A DNA stretch of 34,360 nucleotides from a virus (taxonomy: Duplodnaviria; Caudoviricetes): IMG/VR virus record IMGVR_UViG_3300032135_000034, positions 1 to 34,360 of that record; one strand, given 5' to 3'. The notes beneath the pieces are model-generated. The model was not told the origin of the DNA and did not search any database. It saw only the letters and a list, made by a program, of their open reading frames with translations. Positions 1,043 to 21,862 of the stretch are shown here, one piece after another (position 1 is the first letter of the stretch; the number at the start of each line of letters is the position of its first letter). A program made the translations under genes and the position numbers.

Positions 1043-1600
1043 TTACTTTCTTTTGAAAGATAATCCTTTTACTAAATTATCCTTGGTATCTTGATTTACA
1101 CCTATATATATTTTTGTAACAGATATATCTTTATGGTTTAAAAGGTCCTTTATTCCCATAATATCTTTACTGTCTTTATATAACCAATACCCAAATGTTT
1201 TTCTCATGGTGTGGCAACCTATATTTTCTTTATATTCAAAAAAGTCTGCTGCATTATTTAATATTTGCCATACTCTTTGTCTTGTAATCGGTTTGTTTTT
1301 TCCTTCTCTGCTTTGAAATAGAAATTCATAATCGTTCATATCTTTTGTATATTTTTTATATATTTTTTGTAACTCACTATTTATAGCAATATTAGCTTCT
1401 TTGTTTGTTTTGCTTTCCCTGATATAAATATGATCTTTATTTTTTACATCTCTAACTTTAAATTTCAACATATCAGATATTCTTCGCCCCATGTATATAC
1501 CTGTCTCAAATAAAACATAATCTCTATAGTTTTTAGTTTTTAAATAGTCTTCAATATCATAAAGTAAATCTTGGTTTCTTAGAGGTTCGACTGTATTCAT
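1043..1600 (-). CDS. Small (catalytic-domain-only) tyrosine recombinase
   Basis: GRRISD, ESKT, HTMRKTFGY, LNH, TKIY catalytic set; 185 aa. Confidence 0.92.
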   Translation of the reverse strand: MNTVEPLRNQDLLYDIEDYLKTKNYRDYVLFETGIYMGRRISDMLKFKVRDVKNKDHIYIRESKTNKEANIAINSELQKIYKKYTKDMNDYEFLFQSREGKNKPITRQRVWQILNNAADFFEYKENIGCHTMRKTFGYWLYKDSKDIMGIKDLLNHKDISVTKIYIGVNQDTKDNLVKGLSFKRK

Positions 1601-1821
1601 TCATTTCTCACCTGCCTTACTGCTCCATTTATTCTTTTGTAAGTATCATGTCCCATGCATTTCTTTAAACTATCATTAGTATTTTCTATTATCACTTTTT
1701 TACTATTGCAGTAAGGACAAACTAAATATCTATCCTTAGACATCTTTGCAACCTCTTCTGTTAATAAAACAAATTCAAATCTACATGCAATACATTTATA
1801 GCTTGTATACATACTTAGCAT
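1597..1821 (-). CDS. Zinc-ribbon protein
   Basis: YKCIAC...CPYCNS; GAGG SD. Confidence 0.75.
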   Translation of the reverse strand: MLSMYTSYKCIACRFEFVLLTEEVAKMSKDRYLVCPYCNSKKVIIENTNDSLKKCMGHDTYKRINGAVRQVRNE

Positions 1822-1875
1822 ATCCTCACTGCTCCTTATATTTTACTTTTAGAGTAACCTACTCTATTAATCACA

Positions 1876-1944
1876 TCATGTGCTTATAAATCCACATACC
1901 GGGCATTGTCCATTTTCTAACTCATTACCACAGATAGGACACAT
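1876..1944 (-). CDS. 22-aa micro zinc-ribbon peptide MCPICGNELENGQCPVCGFIST
   Basis: GAGGTG SD 5 nt before ATG; two CPxCG knuckles; below ORF-track cutoff. Confidence 0.6.
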   Translation of the reverse strand: MCPICGNELENGQCPVCGFIST

Positions 1945-1962
1945 ATTCTCACCTCTTGAACG

Positions 1963-2000
1963 TAAAAAAAGACACTGGTAAAGTTTCCAATGTCTTTTTT
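1963..2000. terminator. Bidirectional intrinsic terminator-like hairpin
   Basis: A-run-GACACTGG...CCAATGTC-T-run. Confidence 0.6.
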
Positions 2001-2019
2001 AATCTTATTCACTTGTCGT

Positions 2020-2060
2020 TATACATACTATAATCTAGTAAAACCGTAAAAAACCGTAAT
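2020..2060 (-). promoter_or_regulatory. Putative late promoter with tandem activator-binding repeat
   Basis: AAACCGTAA x2 at 10-bp period (2041-2059) immediately downstream of the late-activator-like gene; TATAGT/TAGTAT -10-like hexamer follows. Confidence 0.45.
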
Positions 2061-2072
2061 TTTAAAATATAT

Positions 2073-2519
2073 TTAATTATTTTTTATTTTGTATTTCTTT
2101 TTAACTTTTGCTATTATTTTTTCTACTGTACTTTTACTGACATTTAATCTTTGTGATATTTGAATATAATTTAATCCATCAACCTCTTTTAATTTAAAAA
2201 TTTTATATTGCATTCCTGTTAAACTTCTTAATTTAATGTTCATTAGCTCCTTTTGTTCTAACATACCTTTTAATATCATTTCTTCTCTTTCTAACCTTAC
2301 ATCAACCCTATTTATACGTGGAATAAGTCTATCAAGGGTTATAAAGTCTTTGCTACCATGTGGCATATCTGAATATGTTTGCGCCTTAAGTTCTCCTGGT
2401 GCTTTAAGTAATACCTCCAAACTTTTCTTTTCATTTTTAAGCCTTGATATGTTCATGTTTGCTATATCTATTTCTGTACATAAGTCTTTATAAGTATTAA
2501 TAGCGTAAATAATAACCAT
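2073..2519 (-). CDS. RinA/ArpU-like late transcription regulator with sigma-r4-type HTH
   Basis: C-terminal LTGMQYKIFKLKEVDGLNYIQISQRLNVSKSTVEKI HTH; track start 2633 overlaps the recombinase, so start is likely 2510-2519. Confidence 0.75.
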   Translation of the reverse strand: MVIIYAINTYKDLCTEIDIANMNISRLKNEKKSLEVLLKAPGELKAQTYSDMPHGSKDFITLDRLIPRINRVDVRLEREEMILKGMLEQKELMNIKLRSLTGMQYKIFKLKEVDGLNYIQISQRLNVSKSTVEKIIAKVKKKYKIKNN

Positions 2520-2532
2520 CCCCTTGATTTTA

Positions 2533-3426
2533 TTAAGAAATTCTTTTGTATTCATAAACAACATTTTCAATGCTTGTCTCTGCGTAAATTTGTGTAGTTT
2601 TTGGATCGCTATGTCCCAAGAGTGCTTGTACATTATGCAATGCCATTCCTGCAGCTAATAAGTGAGTAGCTATACTATGTCTTAACAAATGTGGGTAGAT
2701 TGATTTTCCTAAATCTGCTCGAGACAATATATATTCTTTTAATAAATATTTAGATTTTGTATTAAAACATACTACTCTCTCTTTATTTCCTTTGCCTATA
2801 ACTTTTAATGTTTTATTATGCCAATCTATATCTTCTTTATTTATATCAACTATTTCGCTTAACCGGCAACCACTAGAGTATGTAAATTCAAGCAATGCTT
2901 TCTCACGTATATTTTTACATTTTTGTCTTAATACTTCTACTTCGTCTACAGTTAATGCATGTCTAAGTCTGCCTGGCTCTTTAGTTGCTTTTATTTTTAA
3001 CATAGGATTTTGGGGAATATATTCTTCTTCACGCAGCCAACTAAAAAATGATTTTAATATATAATTTTGTGTGTTAGTTGTACTTGGTTTGAGATTTATG
3101 CATCTTTGGGCTAAATACATTCTTAAATCCATTGTTGTTACAGATCCCAGAGGTTTCCTAAGATAATTTGCAAACTTTAGCAGCTCTTGATTATAATTTT
3201 TTAATGTTCTTATACTTAGTCCATCCAACTTTTTTACAACTAGATAAATGTGTAATTTTTCTTCTGTATCATTGCTTGTTGTAAGTCCTGTTTCTTGTGG
3301 AACTATATCATATTTATACAAGACCTCTTCTGCTATTTGCCTTACCTTAAGTTGATTAATTTCTGGAAATTCTAATGTTAATTTACCTACTAGCCTTATT
3401 ATAATTTCATTATTTGCAATTGACAT
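2533..3426 (-). CDS. XerC/D-like tyrosine recombinase with SAM-like N-domain; apparent internal in-frame deletion
   Basis: SGCRLSE, GKGNK, HLLRHS, LGH, TTQIY; AAGGAGG SD; K-to-HxxR spacing only 34 aa. Confidence 0.92.
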   Translation of the reverse strand: MSIANNEIIIRLVGKLTLEFPEINQLKVRQIAEEVLYKYDIVPQETGLTTSNDTEEKLHIYLVVKKLDGLSIRTLKNYNQELLKFANYLRKPLGSVTTMDLRMYLAQRCINLKPSTTNTQNYILKSFFSWLREEEYIPQNPMLKIKATKEPGRLRHALTVDEVEVLRQKCKNIREKALLEFTYSSGCRLSEIVDINKEDIDWHNKTLKVIGKGNKERVVCFNTKSKYLLKEYILSRADLGKSIYPHLLRHSIATHLLAAGMALHNVQALLGHSDPKTTQIYAETSIENVVYEYKRIS

Positions 3427-3453
3427 ACAATGTTCCTCCTTTGTTTGTTAAAG

Positions 3454-3535
3454 AGGAGATATATGCTATACTATTTATATCTCCTAATGAGATTTTAAGA
3501 GAGCTGAGTGTTATCGAGACTATCAGCTCTTTTTA
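3454..3535 (+). promoter_or_regulatory. Inverted repeat enclosing an extended -10, followed by a terminator-like hairpin
   Basis: AGGAGATATA/TATATCTCCT (3454-3485) around TGCTATACT; AGAGCTGA/TCAGCTCT-TTTT (3500-3534). Confidence 0.5.
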
Positions 3536-3549
3536 TTTACCTTTTATTG

Positions 3550-3569
3550 CGCCAAATTCTTGTATTACG
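3550..3569 (-). repeat. 20-bp boundary motif, copy S1
   Basis: CGTAATACAAGAATTTGGCG, 4 nt after stop at 3574. Confidence 0.6.
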
Positions 3570-3573
3570 TTAT

Positions 3574-3750
3574 TTACTCTTTATATCCATAATCAATTAA
3601 CTTTCTTGTTTTTAATTCTTTTAATGTATTCCTTCCAAAGTCCTCATAACTATCGCCTGCTAAATCTATACAATCTCTAATAATATCTTGAAGTAAATCA
3701 AACATTTGAATTTCGTCTAAATCACTAAGCTTTCTTTTTCCAAATTGCAT
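3574..3750 (-). CDS. Hypothetical protein, 58 aa (MQFGKRKLSDLDEIQ...DYGYKE)
   Basis: GGGAGG SD, ATG; translated by hand. Confidence 0.75.
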   Translation of the reverse strand: MQFGKRKLSDLDEIQMFDLLQDIIRDCIDLAGDSYEDFGRNTLKELKTRKLIDYGYKE

Positions 3751-3766
3751 TTAATAACCTCCCTGT

Positions 3767-3786
3767 CGTAATATTCTCATATTTTG
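3767..3786 (-). repeat. 20-bp boundary motif, copy S2
   Basis: CAAAATATGAGAATATTACG, 3 nt after stop at 3790 and directly before the next SD. Confidence 0.6.
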
Positions 3787-3789
3787 TAG

Positions 3790-4035
3790 CTATAATTTTT
3801 CTAATTGCTTATATTTATCATTAAGATATATCTGAGCTGAAGTTACTAAAACATCAATCATTAGCGTTTTACGGTCTCCGGTTATATAAATTGGTTGTTG
3901 GGTTGTGTCCATTCCTGATATTGATATTTTTATTTCTTTAGCATCTTTAAATCTTTTATATTTTTCTAAATTTTGCTTTGCACTATTGATACATGATTCT
4001 AAATTTTTAGCTCTTTCTAAATCGTCTAGCGTCAT
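3790..4035 (-). CDS. Hypothetical protein
   Basis: 81 aa; AAGGAGGT SD. Confidence 0.8.
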   Translation of the reverse strand: MTLDDLERAKNLESCINSAKQNLEKYKRFKDAKEIKISISGMDTTQQPIYITGDRKTLMIDVLVTSAQIYLNDKYKQLEKL

Positions 4036-4063
4036 ATCTGTACCTCCTTTTTAATATTTTGTC

Positions 4064-4408
4064 TTACTCTTCTCCAGTAATAATTGTGTTTTCACAAGTT
4101 TCACTGAATAGCTCTACTGCATCAACATTATTATCAATCCACCACGTACCATCATAAAATTTAACCTCACCGGTGAAGTCTCTATCCTTTGTACCTACTA
4201 AAACATTTACTTGGCGTACATCCATGCCCTCATATATTTCATTGCCATTAACATCATTTTGCTCTGTATATTGTCCTACTGATCCAGGTATAATTTCATA
4301 ATCTCCATCTTCATTACAAATTTCCGTTCTATCTACAATTTGAAGTAAATCACCATAAATAAAATCTTTTGTATCTTTACTTTTTGCTCTAAATTTAATT
4401 TGCCTCAT
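4064..4408 (-). CDS. YopX family protein
   Basis: MRQIKFRA...VGQYT...DVNGNEIYEGMDV; GAGGAGG SD at the internal ATG 4408. Confidence 0.88.
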   Translation of the reverse strand: MRQIKFRAKSKDTKDFIYGDLLQIVDRTEICNEDGDYEIIPGSVGQYTEQNDVNGNEIYEGMDVRQVNVLVGTKDRDFTGEVKFYDGTWWIDNNVDAVELFSETCENTIITGEE

Positions 4409-4670
4409 TACTGTCCTCCTCTTGTATTTCCTTATGATCAGGCACTGGGATAGCATGTCCACAATTTTCACACACCCATACACTCGAGCTATCACTAGAA
4501 AACCATTTTGTAAAACAATTAGGACATATTCTTTTCTGCATTTGTTGTATACCCTCCTTTTTAAAACCTTCACACTCTTTAATCTTTTTAGATTTAAGAC
4601 CATATATATTATACTTTTTGCACCAACCAAGGATGTTAAATTCACAACCTTGGCATAAATATTTATTCAT
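4395..4670 (-). CDS. Cys-rich small protein; possible second start at 4541 (zinc ribbon)
   Basis: CQGC..C..C and CPNC...CENC; internal AAGGAGG SD before MQKRICPNC. Confidence 0.65.
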   Translation of the reverse strand: MNKYLCQGCEFNILGWCKKYNIYGLKSKKIKECEGFKKEGIQQMQKRICPNCFTKWFSSDSSSVWVCENCGHAIPVPDHKEIQEEDSNEAN

Positions 4671-5644
4671 TATAATCTTTCAGACATTTTATTTATTAAA
4701 TTTGTAATAGCACCTTTACACTTTTCATACATCTCTGGATAATCTTTTTTTATTTCATCCATTGTTTCTAATTCATTCCTGAAAATATTTTGAAGTTCTT
4801 CAAAGTAAATTTTAAATTTAAGGACCGGTTGAGAAGTATTTTGGTTAGTCTTTGCTCTAAGCTCTTGTAGTTCTTTTTCTATTTCATCAGGTACCTTTTC
4901 AATTATCACTGGCTCAGCTGTTATTACATCAACAGGCTTTTTTAATTGTTCTTCAAGTTCATCTATTTTCAAGGCTGAACTATCTAAATCATTTTGTGCT
5001 TCCAGAAGAGATGCCTGGAGTCTTTCAACCTCTTCATCATTCCCAGAAATTTTAGCTTCTCCAATAAATGTTTGAAGCTTTAAAATTTCTTCCTTTTGAT
5101 TTTCTTTTTCTTTTTTTAAATTATCTTTTTCACTTTTAAGTTCACTCTCTAAGGCCTTTAGTTTTAATTCAGATTTTACTTTATCTTCTTCGAGCTGCTT
5201 AGCATCTATTATTGCTTGATTTAGTTGTGATTGATATATTTTTAGATTGTCTTCAGCAGTGTTTTTTTCATTTTCTGCCTTGTCTCTATCTTTAATTGCT
5301 TGTTGCAATTCTCTTGTTGTCATTTCGTTTACAGGGTTCTCTTTTACAAAAGTTTCTCTCTCTTCTTGTGGAAGTTCTAACAGTGCAAAAGCCTTACTTC
5401 TAGGCAAATCCGACAACGTTGTCGTATTTGAAAATTCACTTGCAACTTTCATAAATCTTTGAGCAGTTCTATCAGTAAAATCCACCTTTTCTTTGAGCCA
5501 GTTTCCCCAACCTCCATGAGGTAGTGACTCTTTAACTTCTATCAGTCTTTTACCTATTTCTATAATGTTCTGAGCAGTCTGTTGCTTTAAAATTAATATT
5601 TCAACTGTCAATTTATCTATAACTGTTGTTTGAATTTCATTCAT
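4670..5644 (-). CDS. DUF3102 domain protein with coiled coil
   Basis: IIEIGKRLIEVKESLPHGGWGNWL...RTAQRFM. Confidence 0.88.
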   Translation of the reverse strand: MNEIQTTVIDKLTVEILILKQQTAQNIIEIGKRLIEVKESLPHGGWGNWLKEKVDFTDRTAQRFMKVASEFSNTTTLSDLPRSKAFALLELPQEERETFVKENPVNEMTTRELQQAIKDRDKAENEKNTAEDNLKIYQSQLNQAIIDAKQLEEDKVKSELKLKALESELKSEKDNLKKEKENQKEEILKLQTFIGEAKISGNDEEVERLQASLLEAQNDLDSSALKIDELEEQLKKPVDVITAEPVIIEKVPDEIEKELQELRAKTNQNTSQPVLKFKIYFEELQNIFRNELETMDEIKKDYPEMYEKCKGAITNLINKMSERL

Positions 5645-5662
5645 AATATTTCCTCCTCTTAA

Positions 5663-7192
5663 TTAGGCTGATAATCTTACTCTATTTCTTTTAGTCTGTT
5701 TTTCTAATTTTTCACTTGTAAATACTTTAATAAATTCTTTCACATCATCACTTGGAGAACGATTGTTTTTACCATGTACCTGAACAATTCTATCTTTTTT
5801 TATTTCTATTGTGTAATAAGGTTTATCTAACTCTGCAGCTTTGCGTATGAAAAATATATTGGTTTCACCTTTAGCGTAAGGTTCTGTATAGTGACTAGCA
5901 AGACAGTGGCTTAATGCCTCACTCTCTTCTACCATTTCTACTGAGCTCATAGCCGGTCTGATAATAAGATCACTGTATTTAAATATATATTTTTCTAAAG
6001 ATTTAACTCTATTTTTAATACCTGCATCAAACTTTTCATTTTTATTTATTTTAATTTGCTTAATGGTGTTTTGATGCATAGTGTATAGATCCTTTGGAAA
6101 TAGTACCTGCTCTCTGTTAATGTCCATTCCAAGCAATTTACAATCTGCTATATAATCATTAAGTTTAAGAAGGACACTATCTTCTCTACAATAATGCTTG
6201 TTCTTCTCTGTTCCATTAAATTTCATAAATTGTTTTGATATATATTTTAAAATTTTTCTTATTGAGCTGTACTCAGTTATCATTTTTAAGTCTTCATAAT
6301 GTGCTGAGTAAGTTGTAGCAATTTTTATAATTTCTTCTGTGGATACTTCCCATTTTTGCTTTCTAGCATCCTGAAGAACTTTCAGAAATTGAAAAGTAAC
6401 ATTTATTTTTTTAAGTTTTATTTCTCTTAAATCTAGTTTACTTATTTTTAAAATTTTAAATATTGTTTTTCCATTCCAATTTATTGCTCTTTCTGTGCAA
6501 TATCCATTTAACTTACCGGCAACGAGATTTTCAAAGCCTTCTTTTACTAGATATTCAATGCCAGGGTGTTTGGAATACTCCGCAAATAGTTTTACTATAC
6601 TATAATTCCCTTGAAATTGTTTGTAAGGCATGTGTTGAAAGCTAGTACTTTTAATAGCCTTACCTATACTTTCAAATGAGCAGTAACACATTTTAGATGC
6701 CATCCACCCTTGGTTAAAATCAAATATAGAACTCGTCATATCCCAACCATTATTCCAGTAATTCTTTTTAAACATAGTGGTTTTTTTGTTTTCAAAAATA
6801 TAAATTGCGTATAAATTACATGTTAACTTTGGGTTTTTGTAATCTGTATTATAATTTTTTACTGTGTAATATCCTTTGCAAATTACCACATTAGGATCTA
6901 TAGCTGATTTTTCAAAGTAATAAAAGCAGCTATCATTAGTACATTTTTTTCTACCATATCTGAGTAATTTAGCCCTTACACTAGCCCCGCAGGATGGACA
7001 TCTTCCATCCTCATTATGTTTTATATCTTCAATATCAAATTCGTTTTTGCATTTACTACAATAGGCTTTATTTATTCCATCCTTTTTTTTTATAAATAGA
7101 TATTCTGAATCTCCAAATACCTCTTCATTTACAAATTCCATAATTGGTTCAGTTATATTCAGATTTACATGCTTTAAATAATCTTCATACAT
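5663..7192 (-). CDS. PcfJ domain protein
   Basis: N-terminal CxxC/CPxCG; C-terminal LIIRPA...ESEALSHCL...IFFIRK...PYYTIE...QVHGKNN. Confidence 0.88.
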   Translation of the reverse strand: MYEDYLKHVNLNITEPIMEFVNEEVFGDSEYLFIKKKDGINKAYCSKCKNEFDIEDIKHNEDGRCPSCGASVRAKLLRYGRKKCTNDSCFYYFEKSAIDPNVVICKGYYTVKNYNTDYKNPKLTCNLYAIYIFENKKTTMFKKNYWNNGWDMTSSIFDFNQGWMASKMCYCSFESIGKAIKSTSFQHMPYKQFQGNYSIVKLFAEYSKHPGIEYLVKEGFENLVAGKLNGYCTERAINWNGKTIFKILKISKLDLREIKLKKINVTFQFLKVLQDARKQKWEVSTEEIIKIATTYSAHYEDLKMITEYSSIRKILKYISKQFMKFNGTEKNKHYCREDSVLLKLNDYIADCKLLGMDINREQVLFPKDLYTMHQNTIKQIKINKNEKFDAGIKNRVKSLEKYIFKYSDLIIRPAMSSVEMVEESEALSHCLASHYTEPYAKGETNIFFIRKAAELDKPYYTIEIKKDRIVQVHGKNNRSPSDDVKEFIKVFTSEKLEKQTKRNRVRLSA

Positions 7193-7207
7193 CCTTTACA
7201 CTCCCTT

Positions 7208-7579
7208 TTAAAAATCAAGTTCAACATTAAAATCAACGTTAGGATTTTTATCTTGTGCTATAGGAGCTTGGACCATATGTTCCTGAGGTTTAACTCCAGT
7301 TCCCAAAACTGCTGCATCAATCCCAAAATATTCTAAAACTACTTTAAACCCTTCTTGATCAGTAAGCACTGCACAATTCCCAACCTTCTTTTTTTTAGCT
7401 GCCTTCTCCATTTCACTTAAACTTTTCCCAATAGTTTTATCTTCTTGAAAAATTTTTTCTGCATTACTAGGATTTTCCTGAAGGTGCTGGAGAAGAAATT
7501 CTCCAACTACCTGAACATAAGGATTATTTTTATTTCCATCTATTTCAGCTTTTAATTTTTCAATTGCTTTTGCTAACAT
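7208..7579 (-). CDS. PcfK-like / AcrIIA9-family protein
   Basis: KTI...AKKKKVGNCAVLTDQEGFKVVLEYF; directly upstream of PcfJ. Confidence 0.65.
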   Translation of the reverse strand: MLAKAIEKLKAEIDGNKNNPYVQVVGEFLLQHLQENPSNAEKIFQEDKTIGKSLSEMEKAAKKKKVGNCAVLTDQEGFKVVLEYFGIDAAVLGTGVKPQEHMVQAPIAQDKNPNVDFNVELDF

Positions 7580-7596
7580 AATTTAACCTCCTCTAA

Positions 7597-8346
7597 TTAA
7601 CTAAATGAAGCTTCTGGCTCTTTATCCGGTGTAACTTCATCACTCTCGCAAGTTGTGTCAAGTTCAATTTTAGTCCCATCTTGGTTTAATTTTATTAAAA
7701 ATAATTCAAAATCATCTAAGTGTCTTAGTGAATTTAAATTTTGAACTGATTCACCTGATATGCTCCATTCTTTTTTATTGTTATCATTTGTATATCTATT
7801 AACTTTAATTTCAAGGTTCATATCTTTATCTTTTTCACACTCAAAGTATAAAGTTCCATATTCAAAACTACTCCAACTTCTACTGCTATCTTCTTCAAAA
7901 TCCAATGATATTTCTACCATTTCATAGCTAACTCCATCATCATAAGAAACCTCTAACTCACTTGTATCAATTTCTTTGGCCACGCGTTCTTTCCATTTAT
8001 CAAATAAATCAGATACTTTTATTGATTTTGTTTTTTCATTTACTACCATTAATTCTTTAAAATTAGTCAATAATTTTTTATTCTCTATTGAGCTGCTTTT
8101 AAGAACATCTACTAAAACATTATCAAGCTTTACAATATAAGCTGAGTAATCATATTTTTCCAAGTAGGGAACCATAACACCTTTGATTTTATCTTCTATA
8201 ACTTTTTTAATTTCTCCACTCCAACCAAACATATCTTTAATTGATGATGCAATACATTCTTCTAATTTTGCTGCTATTACCTTTTCAATTATTCCTTTTT
8301 CCAATTCCTGTGATATGCAATCTTTTATACTATTTTCTAAATCCAT
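7597..8346 (-). CDS. Conserved phage hypothetical protein (acidic)
   Basis: 249-aa ORF, GAGGGG SD. Confidence 0.8.
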   Translation of the reverse strand: MDLENSIKDCISQELEKGIIEKVIAAKLEECIASSIKDMFGWSGEIKKVIEDKIKGVMVPYLEKYDYSAYIVKLDNVLVDVLKSSSIENKKLLTNFKELMVVNEKTKSIKVSDLFDKWKERVAKEIDTSELEVSYDDGVSYEMVEISLDFEEDSSRSWSSFEYGTLYFECEKDKDMNLEIKVNRYTNDNNKKEWSISGESVQNLNSLRHLDDFELFLIKLNQDGTKIELDTTCESDEVTPDKEPEASFS

Positions 8347-8382
8347 ATTAATTTACCCCTCTCATTTTTTAATTATTTACTA

Positions 8383-8402
8383 CGCCGAATTTAGCAATTA
8401 CG
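8383..8402 (-). repeat. 20-bp boundary motif, copy S3
   Basis: CGTAATTGCTAAATTCGGCG, 6 nt after the SSB stop. Confidence 0.6.
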
Positions 8403-8408
8403 ACTTAA

Positions 8409-8810
8409 CTAGAATGGTATTTCCCCATCATATATAGGTACCTCTTCATAACCTTGTTGATTTATATCTGTTGTAGCTGCATCATTCTTTTTACTGGCCC
8501 ATTCTAAAAACTCAACTTCATCAGCAATTACCTCTGTAACATATCTTCTGGTACCATCTTTAGCCTCGTAATTTCTAGTTTGAATATTACCTGATACGCT
8601 AACTAATCTCCCCTTTATTACATAGTTTGCTGTAGCTTCTGCTTGCTTTCCAAATACTACTACTGGTATAAAATCCGCTTCCGGTTGTCCCTCTCTTTTA
8701 TATCTTCTATTTACCGCAATAGTAAATATCGCTATAGCCGTTCCTGTTCCTTGCGCAAATTTAAGCTCTGGATCTTTTGTTAATCTACCAACTAAAACAA
8801 CTTTATTTAT
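8409..8810 (-). CDS. ssb: Single-stranded DNA-binding protein (133 aa), ATA start
   Basis: (I/M)NKVVLVGRLTKDPEL...ADFIPVVVFGKQAE...GEIPF; GGGAGTG SD; absent from the ORF track. Confidence 0.93.
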   Translation of the reverse strand: MNKVVLVGRLTKDPELKFAQGTGTAIAIFTIAVNRRYKREGQPEADFIPVVVFGKQAEATANYVIKGRLVSVSGNIQTRNYEAKDGTRRYVTEVIADEVEFLEWASKKNDAATTDINQQGYEEVPIYDGEIPF

Positions 8811-8831
8811 AATAAATCACTCCCATTTTTT

Positions 8832-9386
8832 TTATTTTGTTATAAATTCGCTATAGTCTAAAGTTTCTATCCATTTACAAAACTCTCTCCACTCTGGCAA
8901 TCTATGATCCTTACGTTGGCTATAAACTGTTTTTAATGCTCTATAGTTAGTTGTTAGTCTAGCAGTTAATTCAAACCCAGCAGGGTTGCTATATAAAAGT
9001 CTTAAATAATCTACACTGTCATTTGTTTTGTTATAAATTTCTTTTAATTCTTCCATTATGTCAATTATTCTCGGATCAACGTATTTGTTGTATTGATTAT
9101 ATAAATTAAATTTGCTTATACGGTGCATAGTGCTTTGGCTGCTAACAAAATTTATGAATTTATATCTTTCTAATTCTACCCAGGCCTTATTCGTAAATGT
9201 TAAATCAAAACTTACTAAGATACCTGTTAAAAACTGATCATGTCCACTACCTTTATAACTATTAGCTAAGCCCCTCACTCTGCCTGTAATATCGCAATTG
9301 CAATCTCTTGTATTAATTGCCATTGGGTATTTACTAGCTTTTATACTGTCCTTTAATCCACTAATTTCAACATTTTCTATTTCCAT
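8832..9386 (-). CDS. ThyX-like (flavin-dependent thymidylate synthase fold) phage protein
   Basis: GHDQFL, ERY...SQSTMHR, TTNYRALK...RKDHRLPEW; canonical RHR motif is degenerate. Confidence 0.6.
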   Translation of the reverse strand: MEIENVEISGLKDSIKASKYPMAINTRDCNCDITGRVRGLANSYKGSGHDQFLTGILVSFDLTFTNKAWVELERYKFINFVSSQSTMHRISKFNLYNQYNKYVDPRIIDIMEELKEIYNKTNDSVDYLRLLYSNPAGFELTARLTTNYRALKTVYSQRKDHRLPEWREFCKWIETLDYSEFITK

Positions 9387-9418
9387 CTGCTACCCTCTCT
9401 CATTTATTTGTTCCATTA

Positions 9419-9769
9419 TTATTTCTCCTTTAGCCTATTGGGTATATCTTGCATATCCTTATTATTTAATTCCATTTCTATAGCCATTGATACATTCCAC
9501 ATTGCAGCTCTTAAATGATTTTCTTCTTTTTTTCCTCTCATGTAGCAGCTTAAATGTCTAATTGCACTATCTAGTAGACTATGCGCAGGTATTCCCTTTT
9601 CGCAATTTCTCTCTCCGTATTTAGTGGCTCCATTTTCACAATGTATAGCTAACTCATGTATTGCAACCCATGGTAACAAATCATATCTCCCTTTTCCCTG
9701 GTGCATGTCCCTTACTGCTCCTGTCTTAAATTCTGTTCTTTCTCCACTATCTTTTATTGAATCATCCAT
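9419..9769 (-). CDS. DUF5664 / dATP-dGTP diphosphohydrolase-domain protein
   Basis: DSGER..F.TGAVRD...GKGRYDLLP...GATKYGERN.EKG...SAIRHL...HL.AA.WN; GGAGG SD at 9769. Confidence 0.8.
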   Translation of the reverse strand: MDDSIKDSGERTEFKTGAVRDMHQGKGRYDLLPWVAIHELAIHCENGATKYGERNCEKGIPAHSLLDSAIRHLSCYMRGKKEENHLRAAMWNVSMAIEMELNNKDMQDIPNRLKEK

Positions 9770-9936: not shown

Positions 9937-10110
9937 CTAGTGTGCCCTTCTTTTTCTCTCTATTATTTCTCTGGTATAGTTATTAGCTTCTATTTATTTT
10001 TTTCTATCTAACCCTGCTGCTTTTATATTTTCTAATTTTTCATTAAATTTGTGTTGAGCTTTAAGCGCATTATATGTTGCTATAGCTTTTTGCCTATTAC
10101 TTAACTCCAC
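9937..10110 (-). pseudogene. Small ORF interrupted by an in-frame TAA at 9994-9996 (or a 38-aa gene)
   Basis: GTG start; frame stays open 18 codons past the TAA and ends at the next SD. Confidence 0.4.
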
Positions 10111-14661: not shown

Positions 14662-16392
14662 ATGATTGCTGCAATATATTCACGTAAATCTAAGTTCTCC
14701 GAGAAAGGAGAAAGTGTAGAAAATCAAATAAAAATGTGTGAAGCATATGCAAATACTATTGGAATTGAAAAATTTATCGTTTATGAGGATGAAGGGTTTT
14801 CTGGTGGCAATGTTGAAAGGCCCCAATTTCAAAAAATGATGAAAGAAGCCAAAAGTAAAAAATTCAATTATTTAATATGTTACCGACTTGATAGAATAAG
14901 CCGTAATGTATCAGATTTTACTCAAACCATCGAAGAGTTGAAAAAATACAGAATAGAGTTTATAAGCATTAAAGAACAATTTGATACGAGCTCACCTATG
15001 GGTAGAGCAATGATGAATATATCGGCAGTGTTTGCACAGCTTGAACGTGAAACAATAGCTGAGAGAATAAAGGATAATATGATGGAGCTCTCCAAAACTG
15101 GAAGGTGGTTAGGCGGAACACCTCCACTTGGTTTTAAATCTGAATCCGTAAAATATAATGATAGTAATGGTAAAGATAAAAAAATGTATAAGCTAATTGA
15201 AGTGTTTGAAGAAATGAAAATAGTCAAGCTAATTTATAATTTATATCTTGAAAAAAAAGGATTTAGTGCTGTAGCTAACTACCTATGCAAAAATTACTAT
15301 AATGGTAAAAACGGTGGAGAATTTTCTAGGCAAACAGTACAACAAATAATAACTAATCCCGTGTATTGTGTTGCAGATTCTCTAGCTTTTGAATATTTTA
15401 AAAACGTAGATGCTACAATTTATGGCGAACCTTGTTTAAATGGCTTTATGGTTTACAACAAACGTGAGGGTGGGAAAAAAGATAAACCACTTAATAAATG
15501 GATATTTGCAGTAGGTGAACATCCTGGTGTTATTAACTCAAATGATTGGATAGAGTGTCAAAAAATAAATGAGCATAACAAATCAAAAACTTCTCCAAGA
15601 GTCGGAACTGGAAGTAAGTTTTTACTGGCCAGTATGATAACATGTGGGTGTTGTGGATCCGGAATGGCATCATGGAGTCATAATAATAAAAAGTCTGGAA
15701 AGATGGAAAAATATTATAGATGTAACTTAAAAAACAGAGCTTCTAATCGTTGTAACAACAAAATGTTAAATGCATATAAAGCCGAGGATCTAATTATTGA
15801 ATCTATTAAAAATACAAACGTTGAGCTATTAATAAAAAATATTGAACTACATAAAAAAGAAGTCGAAACTACTGATAGTGCAGTAATTGAAGTTATGAGG
15901 ATAAAGAAAGAAATTGAACAAAATAATAAAATTAGGCAGGGATTGATTAGAAAATCTGCTTTCATGGATGATGACCCCGAAACAATTGAAATGTTTAAAC
16001 AAGAAATATTTGAAATGAAAAAAGAAAATATAGAACTAGAAAGTAAGATTAAAGCAATAGAAATAGATTCTGTAACCCTAGAAAAAATGAATGAAAAGAA
16101 TATTTCAGTAGATGAAATAATAGCTAGCTTAACTCATTTTAAAACGTACATTAACTATGTGGATGATGTTGAAGCAAAGCGTGAACTAATATTAAATATG
16201 GTTGAAAGTATAGTATGGTATGGTGAATCAGAAACTTTAGAAGTTAATTTAATTGGCTCAGGCAAGGTGTTGCCTCGGGGCACAGTTTTAGCTCGCAACT
16301 TGTGTTATGGAAGTAAGAGCAGACGCAACAACTACCAAAATACAAGTATGAATACAAATGCATTAATAGTTTCTCTAAGCACAAAAAAATAA
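14662..16392 (+). CDS. int: Large serine integrase
   Basis: IYSRKS catalytic Ser, DEGFSG, RLDRISR, recombinase domain, CxxCG...C...C zinc ribbon, coiled coil. Confidence 0.96.
   Translation: MIAAIYSRKSKFSEKGESVENQIKMCEAYANTIGIEKFIVYEDEGFSGGNVERPQFQKMMKEAKSKKFNYLICYRLDRISRNVSDFTQTIEELKKYRIEFISIKEQFDTSSPMGRAMMNISAVFAQLERETIAERIKDNMMELSKTGRWLGGTPPLGFKSESVKYNDSNGKDKKMYKLIEVFEEMKIVKLIYNLYLEKKGFSAVANYLCKNYYNGKNGGEFSRQTVQQIITNPVYCVADSLAFEYFKNVDATIYGEPCLNGFMVYNKREGGKKDKPLNKWIFAVGEHPGVINSNDWIECQKINEHNKSKTSPRVGTGSKFLLASMITCGCCGSGMASWSHNNKKSGKMEKYYRCNLKNRASNRCNNKMLNAYKAEDLIIESIKNTNVELLIKNIELHKKEVETTDSAVIEVMRIKKEIEQNNKIRQGLIRKSAFMDDDPETIEMFKQEIFEMKKENIELESKIKAIEIDSVTLEKMNEKNISVDEIIASLTHFKTYINYVDDVEAKRELILNMVESIVWYGESETLEVNLIGSGKVLPRGTVLARNLCYGSKSRRNNYQNTSMNTNALIVSLSTKK
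16298..16347. other. Putative attP inside the integrase 3' end
   Basis: 50-bp imperfect inverted repeat ACTTGTGTTATGGAAGT-N16-ACTACCAAAATACAAGT (14/17 symmetric), centre GA at 16322-16323. Confidence 0.7.
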
Positions 16393-19750: not shown

Positions 19751-19780
19751 TATTGTATTATTCAGTTTTAATGCTAATTA

Positions 19781-19800
19781 CGTCTTATTATCCGAGTGTG
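19781..19800 (-). repeat. 20-bp boundary motif, copy B
   Basis: CACACTCGGATAATAAGACG, 7 nt after the fibre stop. Confidence 0.5.
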
Positions 19801-19807
19801 CAATTAA

Positions 19808-21862
19808 CTAAAATGTATATTTATATACCATCCCTCTACCACTACCAAACCTAATAAGCAAACTATTATCATATATCTCACAATCTTCGGGTTCACTCGC
19901 TACATCTGACATATAAATACTAGAGGTTAATTTATGTGTATTTAAATCTATAACCCACAAATAATTGTCTGTTGTGCTTGAACCACCATCTGGTAAAAAT
20001 AGCTTACCATTATTTATACAATGTCCTTGATAAACAATAATCCTACTCCTTTGATTCGGAAATGCATCTTCAATTAACCATGATTCTAGCACATCACTTT
20101 CAGCAAATATAACGTCACCACTAGCTAATAATGGCATTTTAAACTTTTTAATCATATGTCTATTATTAACATCTTGATAATTGTCAATAGTTTTCCCATA
20201 AGTATAAATAAAACCTTTTTCATTATCCACAATCCAGTCAAACTCATTAGCATAATTAGTATTTATGTTTGCGTAGCTAAGTGTTTGTACCAATGTAGCA
20301 CTAAAAACACCGCCTGTATTAACTATTCTTTCTACGAAACACCTATGACTACCAGTACATTCGCTTATATATAAAAGAGGGTATTCATCACCAATATCAA
20401 AATACTTCGTTCCAAAACTAGCACTATTAGCGTGATTAAGTGCGTTGTATGAGCCTAAATTAAACTCGTTTATTATAGTTTTAGTTAATAAATCAATTGC
20501 AACACATACTCCTGTATTGTAAAATACAAACATTGTATCATTAAATATTGTCATACCTTGATTTGATTCCGTTGTTACTACTGTTCCTAAATCTGCAACA
20601 TTAAAATATAAACTTTTATCATATTTAGGCTTTAAAATTATTTTTTCGCCACTATAATCTGTATTGCCACCATTTATTAATGTTGGAATTGTTTCCATTA
20701 CTCGTCTTCTAGTATCTTTTTCAATTAACGCACCTAAATCACTAGTACCATTATTTCTACAGTTTGATAATAAAATATATGGCATAGGTTTATTTGAAGT
20801 ATTTGTTGAAACTTCAATATTGTTTGTTATTAAATTCCATATTAAATTATCATCAACATTTAATACGTATGTTGTTAATCCTGTTGTTTTTGATGCAATA
20901 ATAATACCTTGTTTTGATACTTGATATAATGTGCTTGTTGATAAATCTATTGTCAATTTTCCTGTTGGTGTATTTTCCTTTATAACATTTTTAGATAAAT
21001 CATAACCGCCACCACCAACAACAAATAACCCATTAAAACTATTTAACAATTCATTATAAGGATTTAGTAAAAATCCATTTGTAAAGCAACCATAATAATT
21101 ATTTGCCATTAATAGATTTTTTTCATTTCTTGCGACTGTATTACCTTGCACTACTATTGTATTGCTTACTAAATCCCAAAGCATAACACTATTAGTAGGT
21201 AAGTTTATAACAGTATCACTTGCAAATACATATGTTTTATATATCGCACCACTAGTACGTTTTATACTATAAAGGCTACCTACGCTAAAATAAAAATCTA
21301 TGGATGAATCGCTTTTAAGTAAAATACCTTTTAATTTTGAAGCACCAGCACCACTATATGCACTTGAAACACTTTGCATTACAACTTGTAAATCTGTATC
21401 ATAACCCATTTTTGCAGTAGTAACCCCACCATCTGCTACAACTGCGTTAACAGGTGTTGCTCCAGCTATTTGTTGTATAAATTCGGTTGTCATATCATTT
21501 TGACCTAATAATGTTAATTTATCTCTCTTTTTAACTATTTCAGCATTTGCAAGATTTAAATCTGCTAAAGTTGCTTTATTAGTAATAAAATCTTGTGTCG
21601 CCATATTTGCCAATTCTGACGCAACTTTATCCAGCCTTACAGGCAAACTTACCTCTCCACCTCTTGCACTTACTATCTCTGCATTTTCACTTCCGGCATT
21701 GATAACTAAATCATCAAATATTATTTTTAAATCGTCTTGTTTGCCTGTAGTAATTTCTACCTCTGTGTTAATTGCTTCTATACCAGTTGCGATATTTTCT
21801 CGTACATCTTTCCCAAACACAGCATCTCTTATTTGTGCTATTTTATCTAGTATGTTAGCCAT
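19808..21862 (-). CDS. Tail fibre / receptor-binding protein (N-anchor, C-terminal beta-propeller-like)
   Basis: IRDAVFGKDVRE.IA...AEIV.ARGG..L.VRLD anchor; propeller-like NQGM, HANS, YQG, EPED repeats; lies before the holin. Confidence 0.8.
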   Translation of the reverse strand: MANILDKIAQIRDAVFGKDVRENIATGIEAINTEVEITTGKQDDLKIIFDDLVINAGSENAEIVSARGGEVSLPVRLDKVASELANMATQDFITNKATLADLNLANAEIVKKRDKLTLLGQNDMTTEFIQQIAGATPVNAVVADGGVTTAKMGYDTDLQVVMQSVSSAYSGAGASKLKGILLKSDSSIDFYFSVGSLYSIKRTSGAIYKTYVFASDTVINLPTNSVMLWDLVSNTIVVQGNTVARNEKNLLMANNYYGCFTNGFLLNPYNELLNSFNGLFVVGGGGYDLSKNVIKENTPTGKLTIDLSTSTLYQVSKQGIIIASKTTGLTTYVLNVDDNLIWNLITNNIEVSTNTSNKPMPYILLSNCRNNGTSDLGALIEKDTRRRVMETIPTLINGGNTDYSGEKIILKPKYDKSLYFNVADLGTVVTTESNQGMTIFNDTMFVFYNTGVCVAIDLLTKTIINEFNLGSYNALNHANSASFGTKYFDIGDEYPLLYISECTGSHRCFVERIVNTGGVFSATLVQTLSYANINTNYANEFDWIVDNEKGFIYTYGKTIDNYQDVNNRHMIKKFKMPLLASGDVIFAESDVLESWLIEDAFPNQRSRIIVYQGHCINNGKLFLPDGGSSTTDNYLWVIDLNTHKLTSSIYMSDVASEPEDCEIYDNSLLIRFGSGRGMVYKYTF
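21599..21618 (-). repeat. 20-bp boundary motif, copy A (inside fibre gene, ~codons 82-88)
   Basis: CAGAATTGGCAAATATGGCG encoding SELANMA right after the anchor domain. Confidence 0.55.

Follow-up and report, generated by a model that had tools for sequence, protein, structure and literature searches.

Palindromic sites with a 6-bp core as likely points of segment exchange in a temperate phage, its relatives, and clostridial chromosomes

IMG/VR virus record IMGVR_UViG_3300032135_000034 (Caudoviricetes) was analyzed from position 1 to 34,360, and this whole stretch is referred to here as the window. It is a 34.4-kb temperate phage contig and the sole contig of its genome. Five copies of a short palindromic site lie on its minus strand. 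Three of these (S3, S2, and S1) delimit genes of an early operon next to a Xer-type tyrosine recombinase gene, c0. The other two (T1 and T2) bound most of a putative tail-spike gene. Comparison of sequences suggests that a Xer-type tyrosine recombinase is likely to use all five for crossover. The window also encodes a serine integrase (14662-16392) in addition to two tyrosine recombinases of 297 and 185 amino acids (aa). The features are listed in Table 1.

Table 1. Sites, genes, and other features of the window (positions count from its first nucleotide; ORF, open reading frame; SD, Shine-Dalgarno sequence).
Feature	Position	Strand	Description
S3	8379..8406	minus	11-6-11 layout; core 8390-8395 GCTAAA, class GC; 17.8 bits (held-out)
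S2	3763..3790	minus	core 3774-3779 TGAGAA, class TG; 15.4 bits
S1	3546..3573	minus	core 3557-3562 CAAGAA, class CA; 16.7 bits
T1	21595..21622	minus	core 21606-21611 GGCAAA; 21.8 bits, top score in window
T2	19777..19804	minus	core 19788-19793 GGATAA; 15.6 bits
Xer-type tyrosine recombinase c0	2533..3426	minus	297 aa; PF00589 and SAM-like domain
Putative tail-spike/receptor-binding protein	19808..21862	minus	684 aa; about 595 C-terminal residues between T1 and T2
ssb-like gene	8409..8813	minus	non-ATG start; upstream anchor of the array
Seven-gene block, S3 to S2	3790..8346	minus	phrog_2600 (7597-8346), PcfK-like, PcfJ, DUF3102, small Cys-rich ORF, YopX, 81-aa ORF
58-aa ORF	3574..3750	minus	SD present; single-gene unit, S2 to S1
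Hairpin	3501..3530	minus	between S1 and the recombinase gene; z −3.5, 0/200 shuffles
Second tyrosine recombinase, phrog_216	1043..1600	minus	185 aa, catalytic domain only; minor candidate enzyme

Results

Site motif

An initial annotation of this DNA described three minus-strand copies of a 20-bp motif, S3 at 8383-8402, S2 at 3767-3786, and S1 at 3550-3569, and both the places and the letters are as it gave them. Each copy was said to follow a stop codon by 3 to 6 nucleotides. The distances are 6 nucleotides for S3 (after ssb), 3 for S2 (after an 81-aa ORF), and 4 for S1 (after a 58-aa ORF). The two tail copies that it mentioned are also real. One (21599-21618) is in frame within gene 19808-21862, and the other (19781-19800) is 7 nucleotides past the stop of the same gene. 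The bases listed as shared (C1, A4, T6, A12, A13, T14, C19, and G20) are indeed common to all five window copies, but A12, T14, and C19 are not invariants of the family, in which they occur at 58%, 62%, and 37%. With one extra constraint, this pattern, which was derived after the fact, matches the window four times against 0.38 expected.

De novo motif discovery by expectation maximization was applied to 126 related loci, from which 1014 dereplicated stop-proximal windows were taken, with the window and its own contig left out. The site motif is the second strongest in this set, behind only the SD plus ATG. This procedure replaced an iterative matrix seeded by the three sites of the window, which drifted to codon periodicity and was discarded. 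An exact-repeat search did not find the motif.

A 185-site position weight matrix from the relatives places the five named sites at ranks 1 to 5 on the minus strand of the window, with scores of 15.4 to 21.8 bits and a next-best score of 9.7. Shuffled versions of the window average 0.115 hits of at least 15 bits (maximum 2 in 200 shuffles), against the five real ones. Across the 126 loci, 207 same-strand hits and 7 other-strand hits are present in the 984 kb upstream of the recombinase, counts that are partly circular because the matrix was trained on upstream windows of the same loci, which share ancestry. The 1059 kb downstream contain 7 hits, and shuffles contain 1. No upstream hits are present in 45 control loci carrying distant Xer genes. 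The 126 loci are redundant and contain the training set, so that weight rests on the held-out window and on the separately baited sets.

The matrix is symmetric around positions 10/11. It is composed of a left arm of approximately AAKTCRCAATW, 6 central bases, and a right arm of approximately WAWKRYGAMNT. This symmetry, together with breakpoint borders at 7/8 and 13/14 (see below), bears out a 28-bp layout of two 11-bp arms and a 6-bp center. With inverted arms around a 6-bp spacer, the sites resemble tyrosine recombinase core sites, as had been proposed. The cassette consensus is AATW-center-WAWK, with T6 in 94%, and the ATAA-center-TTAT inner motif is absent from it. No attC-type hairpin was predicted initially, and none is found. 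The five window sites fold at z values of −1.2 to +1.1, without a significant fold, and 10 of 11 arm pairs have |z| <2 in a covariation analysis of 213 sites.

Breakpoints within the sites

Breakpoint pairs are defined here as pairs in which one flank is shared and the other is not. They were chosen on the flanks only, and a second run picked sites on the arms only. Pairs that share the upstream flank show an identity of 0.94 to 1.0 through position 13, with the exception of position 12, and reach background from position 16. Pairs that share the downstream flank are at background through position 7 and at 0.83 to 1.0 from position 8 onward, again with position 12 excepted. Positions 8-11 are kept in both pair sets. 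Positions 8-9 are identical in 18 of 20 and 20 of 21 families (38/41 junction families), compared with a background of 0.38-0.40. Position 12 tracks neither flank (0.56 and 0.58; class-matched 0.50), as expected inside a heteroduplex. A homology switch at positions 8-13 is the pattern expected of staggered cuts around a 6-bp overlap that needs to match. It also agrees with the core of the 7-6-7 split that had been drawn for the 20-bp motif.

Breakpoints of gene gain and loss fall in the motif, as was anticipated. Swapped downstream neighbors occur at 27 of the 28 gene-end families that bear a site and at 54 of the 136 that do not, and the median break is 15 nucleotides after the stop with a site and 2 nucleotides without one. 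The sites are thus hot spots, yet not the sole route of shuffling.

S3 is a junction: homology to loci L019 and L022 on the upstream side stops at positions 13-14, and L264, unrelated in its upstream flank, matches near-perfectly on the downstream side only, beginning at the right end of the site. Homology between L020 and the window starts within S1. For S2, neither flank is common to any close relative. Contigs of four sequencing runs contain no joint at any site in 1500-9500; contigs drop rare forms, so absence is not evidenced by this result.

By these comparisons, the site family is real and widespread and has a clear core rule. Site-specific crossover at the sites is very probable.

Core classes

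Classes CA, TG, and GC account for 89, 79, and 11 of the 213 sites, respectively. The classes follow the order GC, TG, CA along the array in 40 of 47 arrays, where 15.8 would be expected, and 113 of the 122 mixed pairs keep it too, the arrays sharing ancestry. The array of the window reads GC, TG, CA, and all three cores differ. Positions 8-11 are shared by 40 of 124 adjacent pairs (24% expected).

The initial annotation held that the recombinase inserts and excises circular cassettes. This does not stand as the main route, as junctions nearly always keep positions 8-9 while the cores of S3, S2, and S1 differ. If cores have to match, S2xS1 and S3xS2 circles are not expected. By the same rule, each of the three sites would be able to recombine with a like site of another phage. 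Exchange between genomes at matching cores is the likely process, not circle excision.

Tail-spike gene

Gene 19808..21862 is placed after the genes for Dit and the tail endopeptidase and before the holin gene. We infer a receptor-binding function for its product from this position and, for some relatives, from PHROG matches. The product has no family match, and the ESM Atlas gave no named family for its C-terminal part.

T1 is in frame (A-S-E-L-A-N-M-A-T) and directly follows the N-terminal anchor. L332 and L339 have this anchor in common with the window and diverge just past T1. L332 then carries a different C-terminus and rejoins the window sequence at T2. The same breakpoint rule applies to 20 upstream-shared pairs, in which near-identical tail anchors diverge just past the core. 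With the tail endopeptidase as bait, 67 loci were obtained, and a single frame accounts for 13 of their 14 distinct in-ORF hits. In-frame copies chosen at the protein level for Ser-Gln-Leu use TCG in 10 of 16 cases, compared with 2.9%, and TTG in 11 of 16, compared with 11%. These rare codons point to selection on the DNA.

A site-baited scan returned 25 viral loci, 14 of which are evaluable (site in a long co-oriented ORF, with at least 2 kb beyond). A second direct site is present after the gene, 1.4-3.9 kb on, in 13 of these 14. Positions 8-10 are shared by none of 21 tail pairs, which were hand-picked by eye, and the two tail cores of the window also differ. The tail-spike region of the window has no plus-strand hit of 9 bits or more; spare tips in relatives were not systematically searched. 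The system extends beyond the early operon named in the initial inference, as sites also reach tail-spike genes and host chromosomes.

L498 contains four tandem 60-bp units at approximately 4180-4390, each with an in-frame site, in a tail-region ORF. L479 is a viral contig of 54% GC with the same in-frame site and downstream partner. Its tail-fiber protein is named from a Kiritimatiellales metagenome-assembled genome, and the contig reflects either a wider host range of the system or mis-binning.

Neighboring recombinase

The array ends just before the recombinase gene, as first described. S1 is the final site and lies about 120 nucleotides ahead of the start of c0, and the site of relatives is at about −150 or −77 from the start. 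No site is present inside the c0 gene.

The catalytic residues R188, K212, H246, R249, H272, and Y281 are retained in c0, and R-K-H-R-H-Y is invariant in 15 of 15 aligned sequences, the window included. Relatives are 329-331 aa in length. An in-frame deletion near 2718, seen as a 33-column gap, has removed 33 aa that they have. The missing 99 bp lay between 9-bp direct repeats and align to XerD residues ~195-228 of 1a0p. The catalytic domain of c0 is incomplete, and the missing part covers the stretch aligned to RQTFWHRIK of XerD, which we take to be the DNA-recognition helix. For lack of this stretch, the copy of the window is probably inactive. Sequencing contigs X1 and X3 span the deletion without a gap, but may be the window's own source. 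A homologue in a prophage (L409:8900-11400) is split in two, with the C-terminal half upstream of the N-terminal half and sites at 10080 and 11364. This split breaks elsewhere than the c0 deletion.

Close homologues of c0 are found in Clostridium genomes and phages, and distant ones sit between tail and lysis genes. A site is present within 3 kb upstream of 32 of 37 early-operon homologues and 9 of 11 tail-module homologues less than 85% identical, and downstream of 4/37 and 3/14. Since the distant homologues are in the tail module, the link between site and enzyme holds in two modules. In L504, a cultured phage with a 40%-identical homologue, both tail sites are upstream. A site lies within 300 bp upstream of 23 of 97 homologues and, in a comparison with attI, is of the same kind as the other sites. 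None of the 97 has a site just after its stop, and the possibility of the recombinase being itself a cassette flanked on both sides was rejected on this count.

A sister clade (31-35% identity, L454-L469) occurs in type I restriction-modification-like loci between specificity-subunit-like genes and has no adjacent sites. The early and tail contexts interleave in a quick tree, for which the careful search was unfinished. The contexts were set by hand, with L048, L049, L051, L053, and L178 unsure, and no order of events was drawn from it. The 185-aa recombinase is present in 39 of 127 loci and is not tied to arrays.

Chromosomal arrays

A pattern scan of five Clostridium genomes found matches outside phages, in rows of small co-oriented genes. 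The row in L400 starts at a weak site (11 bits) at the 3’ end of a spo0A-like gene, a label that is our own reading of the protein. It continues with a phage-tail-like fragment containing an in-frame site (5090-6700), followed by approximately ten genes, each flanked by 1-3 sites. Chromosomal junctions obey the 8-13 rule in 9 and 10 families, with both strands counted. Other genomes carry single dispersed copies of the site at gene 3’ ends. No family with a flank shared between chromosome and phage was found at the thresholds used. No recombinase lies beside the fetched chromosomal arrays, the sole matches among 25 stretches being in a prophage. Genome-wide pattern counts were too insensitive to be correlated with recombinase presence, as most of 151 genomes are at control level.

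The chromosomal rows (L400:5090-14077, L401, L402, L405-L407, and L421) contain small GNAT-, methyltransferase-, and HD-like genes. The spacers of these rows contain repeated terminator-like and promoter-like modules bounded by sites of their own class (TTC, GGA, or GTA). In L414 (9596-10170), roughly 570 bp separating two genes are enclosed by sites in inverted orientation, accompanied by GAGGACA repeats. Ends related to this element adjoin dnaJ- and tgt-like genes (L418:10044), and it resembles a small dispersed element.

Probable clostridial dif

The palindrome TTCGCTAAA-N6-TTTAGCGAA lies just upstream of a lexA-linked Xer-type gene in clostridial genomes (L425:1017-1040, L430:2465-2488, and L433:680-703; also L426 and L427). 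Its spacer is often TGTATA, and in the closed contigs G054, G109, and G154 it is near 50-53% of the contig. This host palindrome is likely the true clostridial dif, in a XerS-like layout, and it differs from published predictions. Those of Kono et al. for C. botulinum are 137-175 degrees off the skew shift and were not used here (PMC3025954). The probable dif addresses the gap left by such predictions.

Early array and its cargo

The single-gene unit that was described between S2 and S1, an SD and a 58-aa ORF, is present. Its product has no Pfam or PHROG match. The 4.6-kb stretch between S3 and S2 had been taken as one unit, which it is not, as its first gene (7597-8346) travels alone. Homology to L264 extends only from the site to the end of this gene, and in L021 the gene is flanked by sites on its own. 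No intergenic internal site above 6 bits is present in the block, which is a mosaic without a remaining internal site. The PcfK label given to one of its genes is below the Pfam cut-off (E 0.0025, 18.4 bits against 27).

The ssb-like assignment is based on DNA homology to an L019 gene that matches PF00436. This gene appears to start at an ATT/ATA codon (8808-8813). The sigma-70-region-4 gene (~2515-2521) probably has such a start as well, and ATT is at the same place in relatives. An inverted repeat like the hairpin at 3501..3530 is present upstream of most close recombinase homologues and is a possible terminator or attenuator. Rfam gave no matches in 1800-9000, and the region has no more promoter matches than chance predicts (24 against 27.6).

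Arrays of relatives contain one to nine sites in rows, with differing genes between them. Of 180 cargo representatives, 85 were scanned, and most of these have no Pfam match. The matches include YopX, DNA methylases, HEPN/AbiU2, chloramphenicol acetyltransferase, and an AraC/GyrI regulator. Site-flanked genes in prophage early arrays encode chloramphenicol acetyltransferase, AraC/GyrI-like, and PNPOx-like proteins (L106:8483-9109, L034:8278-9171, and L113:8962-9456).

Discussion

The reading slightly favored here is that the sites are crossover points at which a Xer-type enzyme swaps segments between genomes with matching cores, catalyzed in trans by the neighboring 330-aa family. A first crossover at one matching pair would join two co-resident phage genomes, or a phage and a chromosome. 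A second crossover at another matching pair would resolve the co-integrate, and the intervening segment would be replaced. Unlike cores would protect a phage against deletion of its own genes. Where sites of one class follow one another, single units could in addition be gained, lost, or duplicated. Catalysis would come from the 330-aa family whose gene lies just downstream, in trans where the phage copy is missing or damaged. This last step is the weakest.

Several observations weigh against this reading, in addition to the partial circularity of the upstream counts and the selection of the tail pairs by eye. Of 16 low-GC loci with at least 2 sites that were found by an independent bait, 12 have no recombinase locally. 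At least 7 array-bearing phage records rated at least 90% complete lack the recombinase altogether, and 2 of 25 site-baited loci have one. The three genomes richest in chromosomal sites gave no recombinase match, with at most 14 candidates scored per genome. Phage phiCp-D (L503) has a homologue and no site. Other genes are likewise found at fixed array ends, so that position alone is no proof of an enzyme role. Beyond the enzyme itself, 54 of 81 swapped gene ends are without a site, indicating that other shuffling routes exist too, and positions 8-9 agree in 48 of 124 adjacent pairs (expected 0.32, p 0.04), which permits circles in some arrays. Array loci without an enzyme do not refute a role in trans, as integron arrays without an integrase are common (PMC9892861). 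The 330-aa phage family is moderately favored as a catalyst acting in trans.

A host recombinase, likeliest the lexA-linked clostridial Xer-type protein, may act instead, in which case the sites would be variants of the host dif comparable to pdif, with the phage enzyme as a passenger. The lexA-linked gene has an 11-6-11 palindrome 50-70 bp upstream in 5/5 genomes, whose outer bases TTCGC...GCGAA match the cassette consensus, and the palindrome occurs with at most 2 mismatches in 107 of 151 Clostridiaceae genomes. Phages and chromosomes devoid of the phage enzyme still carry cassette sites, and an R-S/T-I/V-E stretch is common to the host Xer and the phage family where XerD has R-Q-G/T-F-W. 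The inner arm bases differ, however (cassette AATW, host TAAA), and these are said to decide XerCD binding and cutting (PMC11705084). The phage family moreover retains its catalytic residues and tracks the cassette-type site across modules. In another host candidate, XerD-like, two catalytic residues are missing from 3/3 sequences, namely the first Arg and the H-x-x-R His. Action by the host is considered unlikely on this balance, though it is the most serious of the alternatives. In the clostridial XerD-like proteins (L424, L431, and L434), Lys replaces the first catalytic Arg.

An integron-like process without attC hairpins, in which the adjacent recombinase moves promoterless cassettes in and out between neighboring sites as circles, would account for all sites being direct and for arrays ending at the recombinase. 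Same-class runs of sites also exist, as in the adjacent pairs that share positions 8-11 and the tandem 60-bp copies of L498. This process is improbable given the unlike cores in most adjacent pairs and in all window pairs, the ordered classes, which random insertion of circles would not preserve, and the lack of any core-compatible tail pair (0/21). The motifs could also be conserved stop-to-SD linkers that serve as microhomology for phage or host homologous recombination. The early copies do sit between stop and SD, no enzyme would be needed in cis, and conserved motifs around the receptor-binding domains of coliphages have been described as possible hotspots (PMC10408124). The identity common to both partners is often just 4 bp (8-11), with mismatches at 7 and 12, and breaks keep to fixed positions across three settings unrelated to one another, among them the in-frame copies, which have no role as linkers. 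As the palindrome and the class order are also left unexplained, linkers are a decidedly improbable account. A very improbable reading is that the motif is chiefly a regulatory element or one bound by a protein such as a transcription factor or nucleoid protein, or that the 185-aa recombinase is the actor. The single chromosomal copies, which are scattered over gene 3’ ends and have no recombinase next to them, fit this, as does an analogous stop-proximal palindrome with other arms in phages of 33-38% GC baited with the small recombinase. Binding alone gives no breakpoints at a 6-bp core, and arrays without the small recombinase and small recombinases without arrays both occur. The analogous palindrome, ACCAAA-N6-TTTT, is present in approximately 33 windows from loci among L185-L263, in phages that lack the 330-aa recombinase and are probably Bacillus-type.

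A broader proposal is that clostridia and their phages run a grammar of cassette exchange, in which the 6-bp core is an address and segments with like addresses are swapped between genomes by a recombinase that phages carry for this purpose. It is offered tentatively. An equally tentative part of it is the scheme of addresses, with GC, TG, and CA for early-operon slots, GG-type pairs around receptor-binding domains, and GTA, TTC, and GGA in chromosomal arrays, where they would connect modules of gene, terminator, and promoter. If true, the system would fill the role that integrons have in Gram-negatives, and phages and chromosomes would exchange host-range determinants, DNA methylases, and resistance-type genes through it. 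No complete integron was reported in the Firmicutes genomes of Cury et al. (PMC4889954), yet hypervariable rows of small genes and swapped tail-spike tips are found in the phages and chromosomes of this group. A crossover site with a core-matching rule would give mosaicism a specific mechanism, one that predicts which segments exchange. One site family would link phage host-range variation with chromosomal accessory-gene arrays. Should a recombinase be confirmed, cassette exchange would gain a natural collection of sites that are incompatible with one another.

Comparison with known systems

No account of this site family was found in the literature searched, most subscription journals being outside its coverage, and the available part of PMC8138268 contains nothing on it. 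The family is apparently undescribed. One of the two nearest systems is pdif/xrs of Acinetobacter plasmids (Blanchais et al. 2025, PMC11705084), in which 28-bp sites with two arms and a 6-bp center flank accessory genes, as here. The centers of flanking pdif pairs are divergent and the modules are not excised; sites with related centers recombine between replicons into co-integrates (PMC11705084). Compatibility by the central region is seen here by comparison only, in the positions 8-9 kept at 38/41 junctions. Unlike pdif sites, those described here are without exception direct and have no ATAA/TTAT inner motif. They also differ in being found in phages and clostridial chromosomes, in falling into ordered classes, and in entering reading frames. 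Host XerCD is used by pdif (PMC11705084), whereas a phage-encoded enzyme is the leading candidate here.

The other, the Rin shufflon of Bifidobacterium prophages, has an armless tyrosine recombinase beside a receptor-binding protein locus (Mavrich et al. 2018, PMC6109161). That neighborhood is not present in the window and is true of tail-type homologues such as L041, L044, L045, L155, and L504. As in the present tail genes, one Rin site is within the receptor-binding protein gene and a second, direct one is just past its end, so that the C-terminus is swapped behind a constant N-terminus (PMC6109161). Rin works by inversion of spare tips that the genome itself carries, at 11-bp rix sites that are asymmetric and identical to each other (PMC6109161). 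The present tail sites are palindromic and unlike each other, the window has no spare tip, and the same type of site is also in early operons and chromosomes.

Integrons and clusters of attC sites lacking integron integrases (CALINs), including phage-borne ones, are also co-oriented arrays of small genes that end in sites beside a tyrosine recombinase (Qi et al. 2023, PMC9892861; Cury et al. 2016, PMC4889954). Integron arrays often lack the enzyme (PMC9892861), and DNA methylases are in the cargo of both. The available text of Qi et al. makes no mention of Clostridium, Bacillus, or Firmicutes (PMC9892861). In contrast to integrons, the enzyme here is not IntI, the sites are short and non-folding, and a core match is needed. 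An intact homologue scores 103.7 bits on TIGR02249, where the cut-off is 265, and the NCBI name ‘integron integrase’ stems from NF040815 (222.8 against 220). The system is not an integron.

XerS/difSL has its site directly upstream of the recombinase gene, as do the phage family and the clostridial host Xer (Le Bourgeois et al. 2007, PMC1914069). It is a single site per chromosome for dimer resolution, not a set of many addressed sites (PMC1914069). The PeSL cassettes of T4-type phages are repeated intergenic elements that shuffle non-essential genes in a modular way (Arbiol et al. 2010, PMC2839356). They are units of promoter and stem-loop (PMC2839356), whereas the present sites have no significant fold and promoter matches are at chance. 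Overall, the system works like pdif and its tail part like Rin, but it lacks defining properties of both, as it does of integrons.

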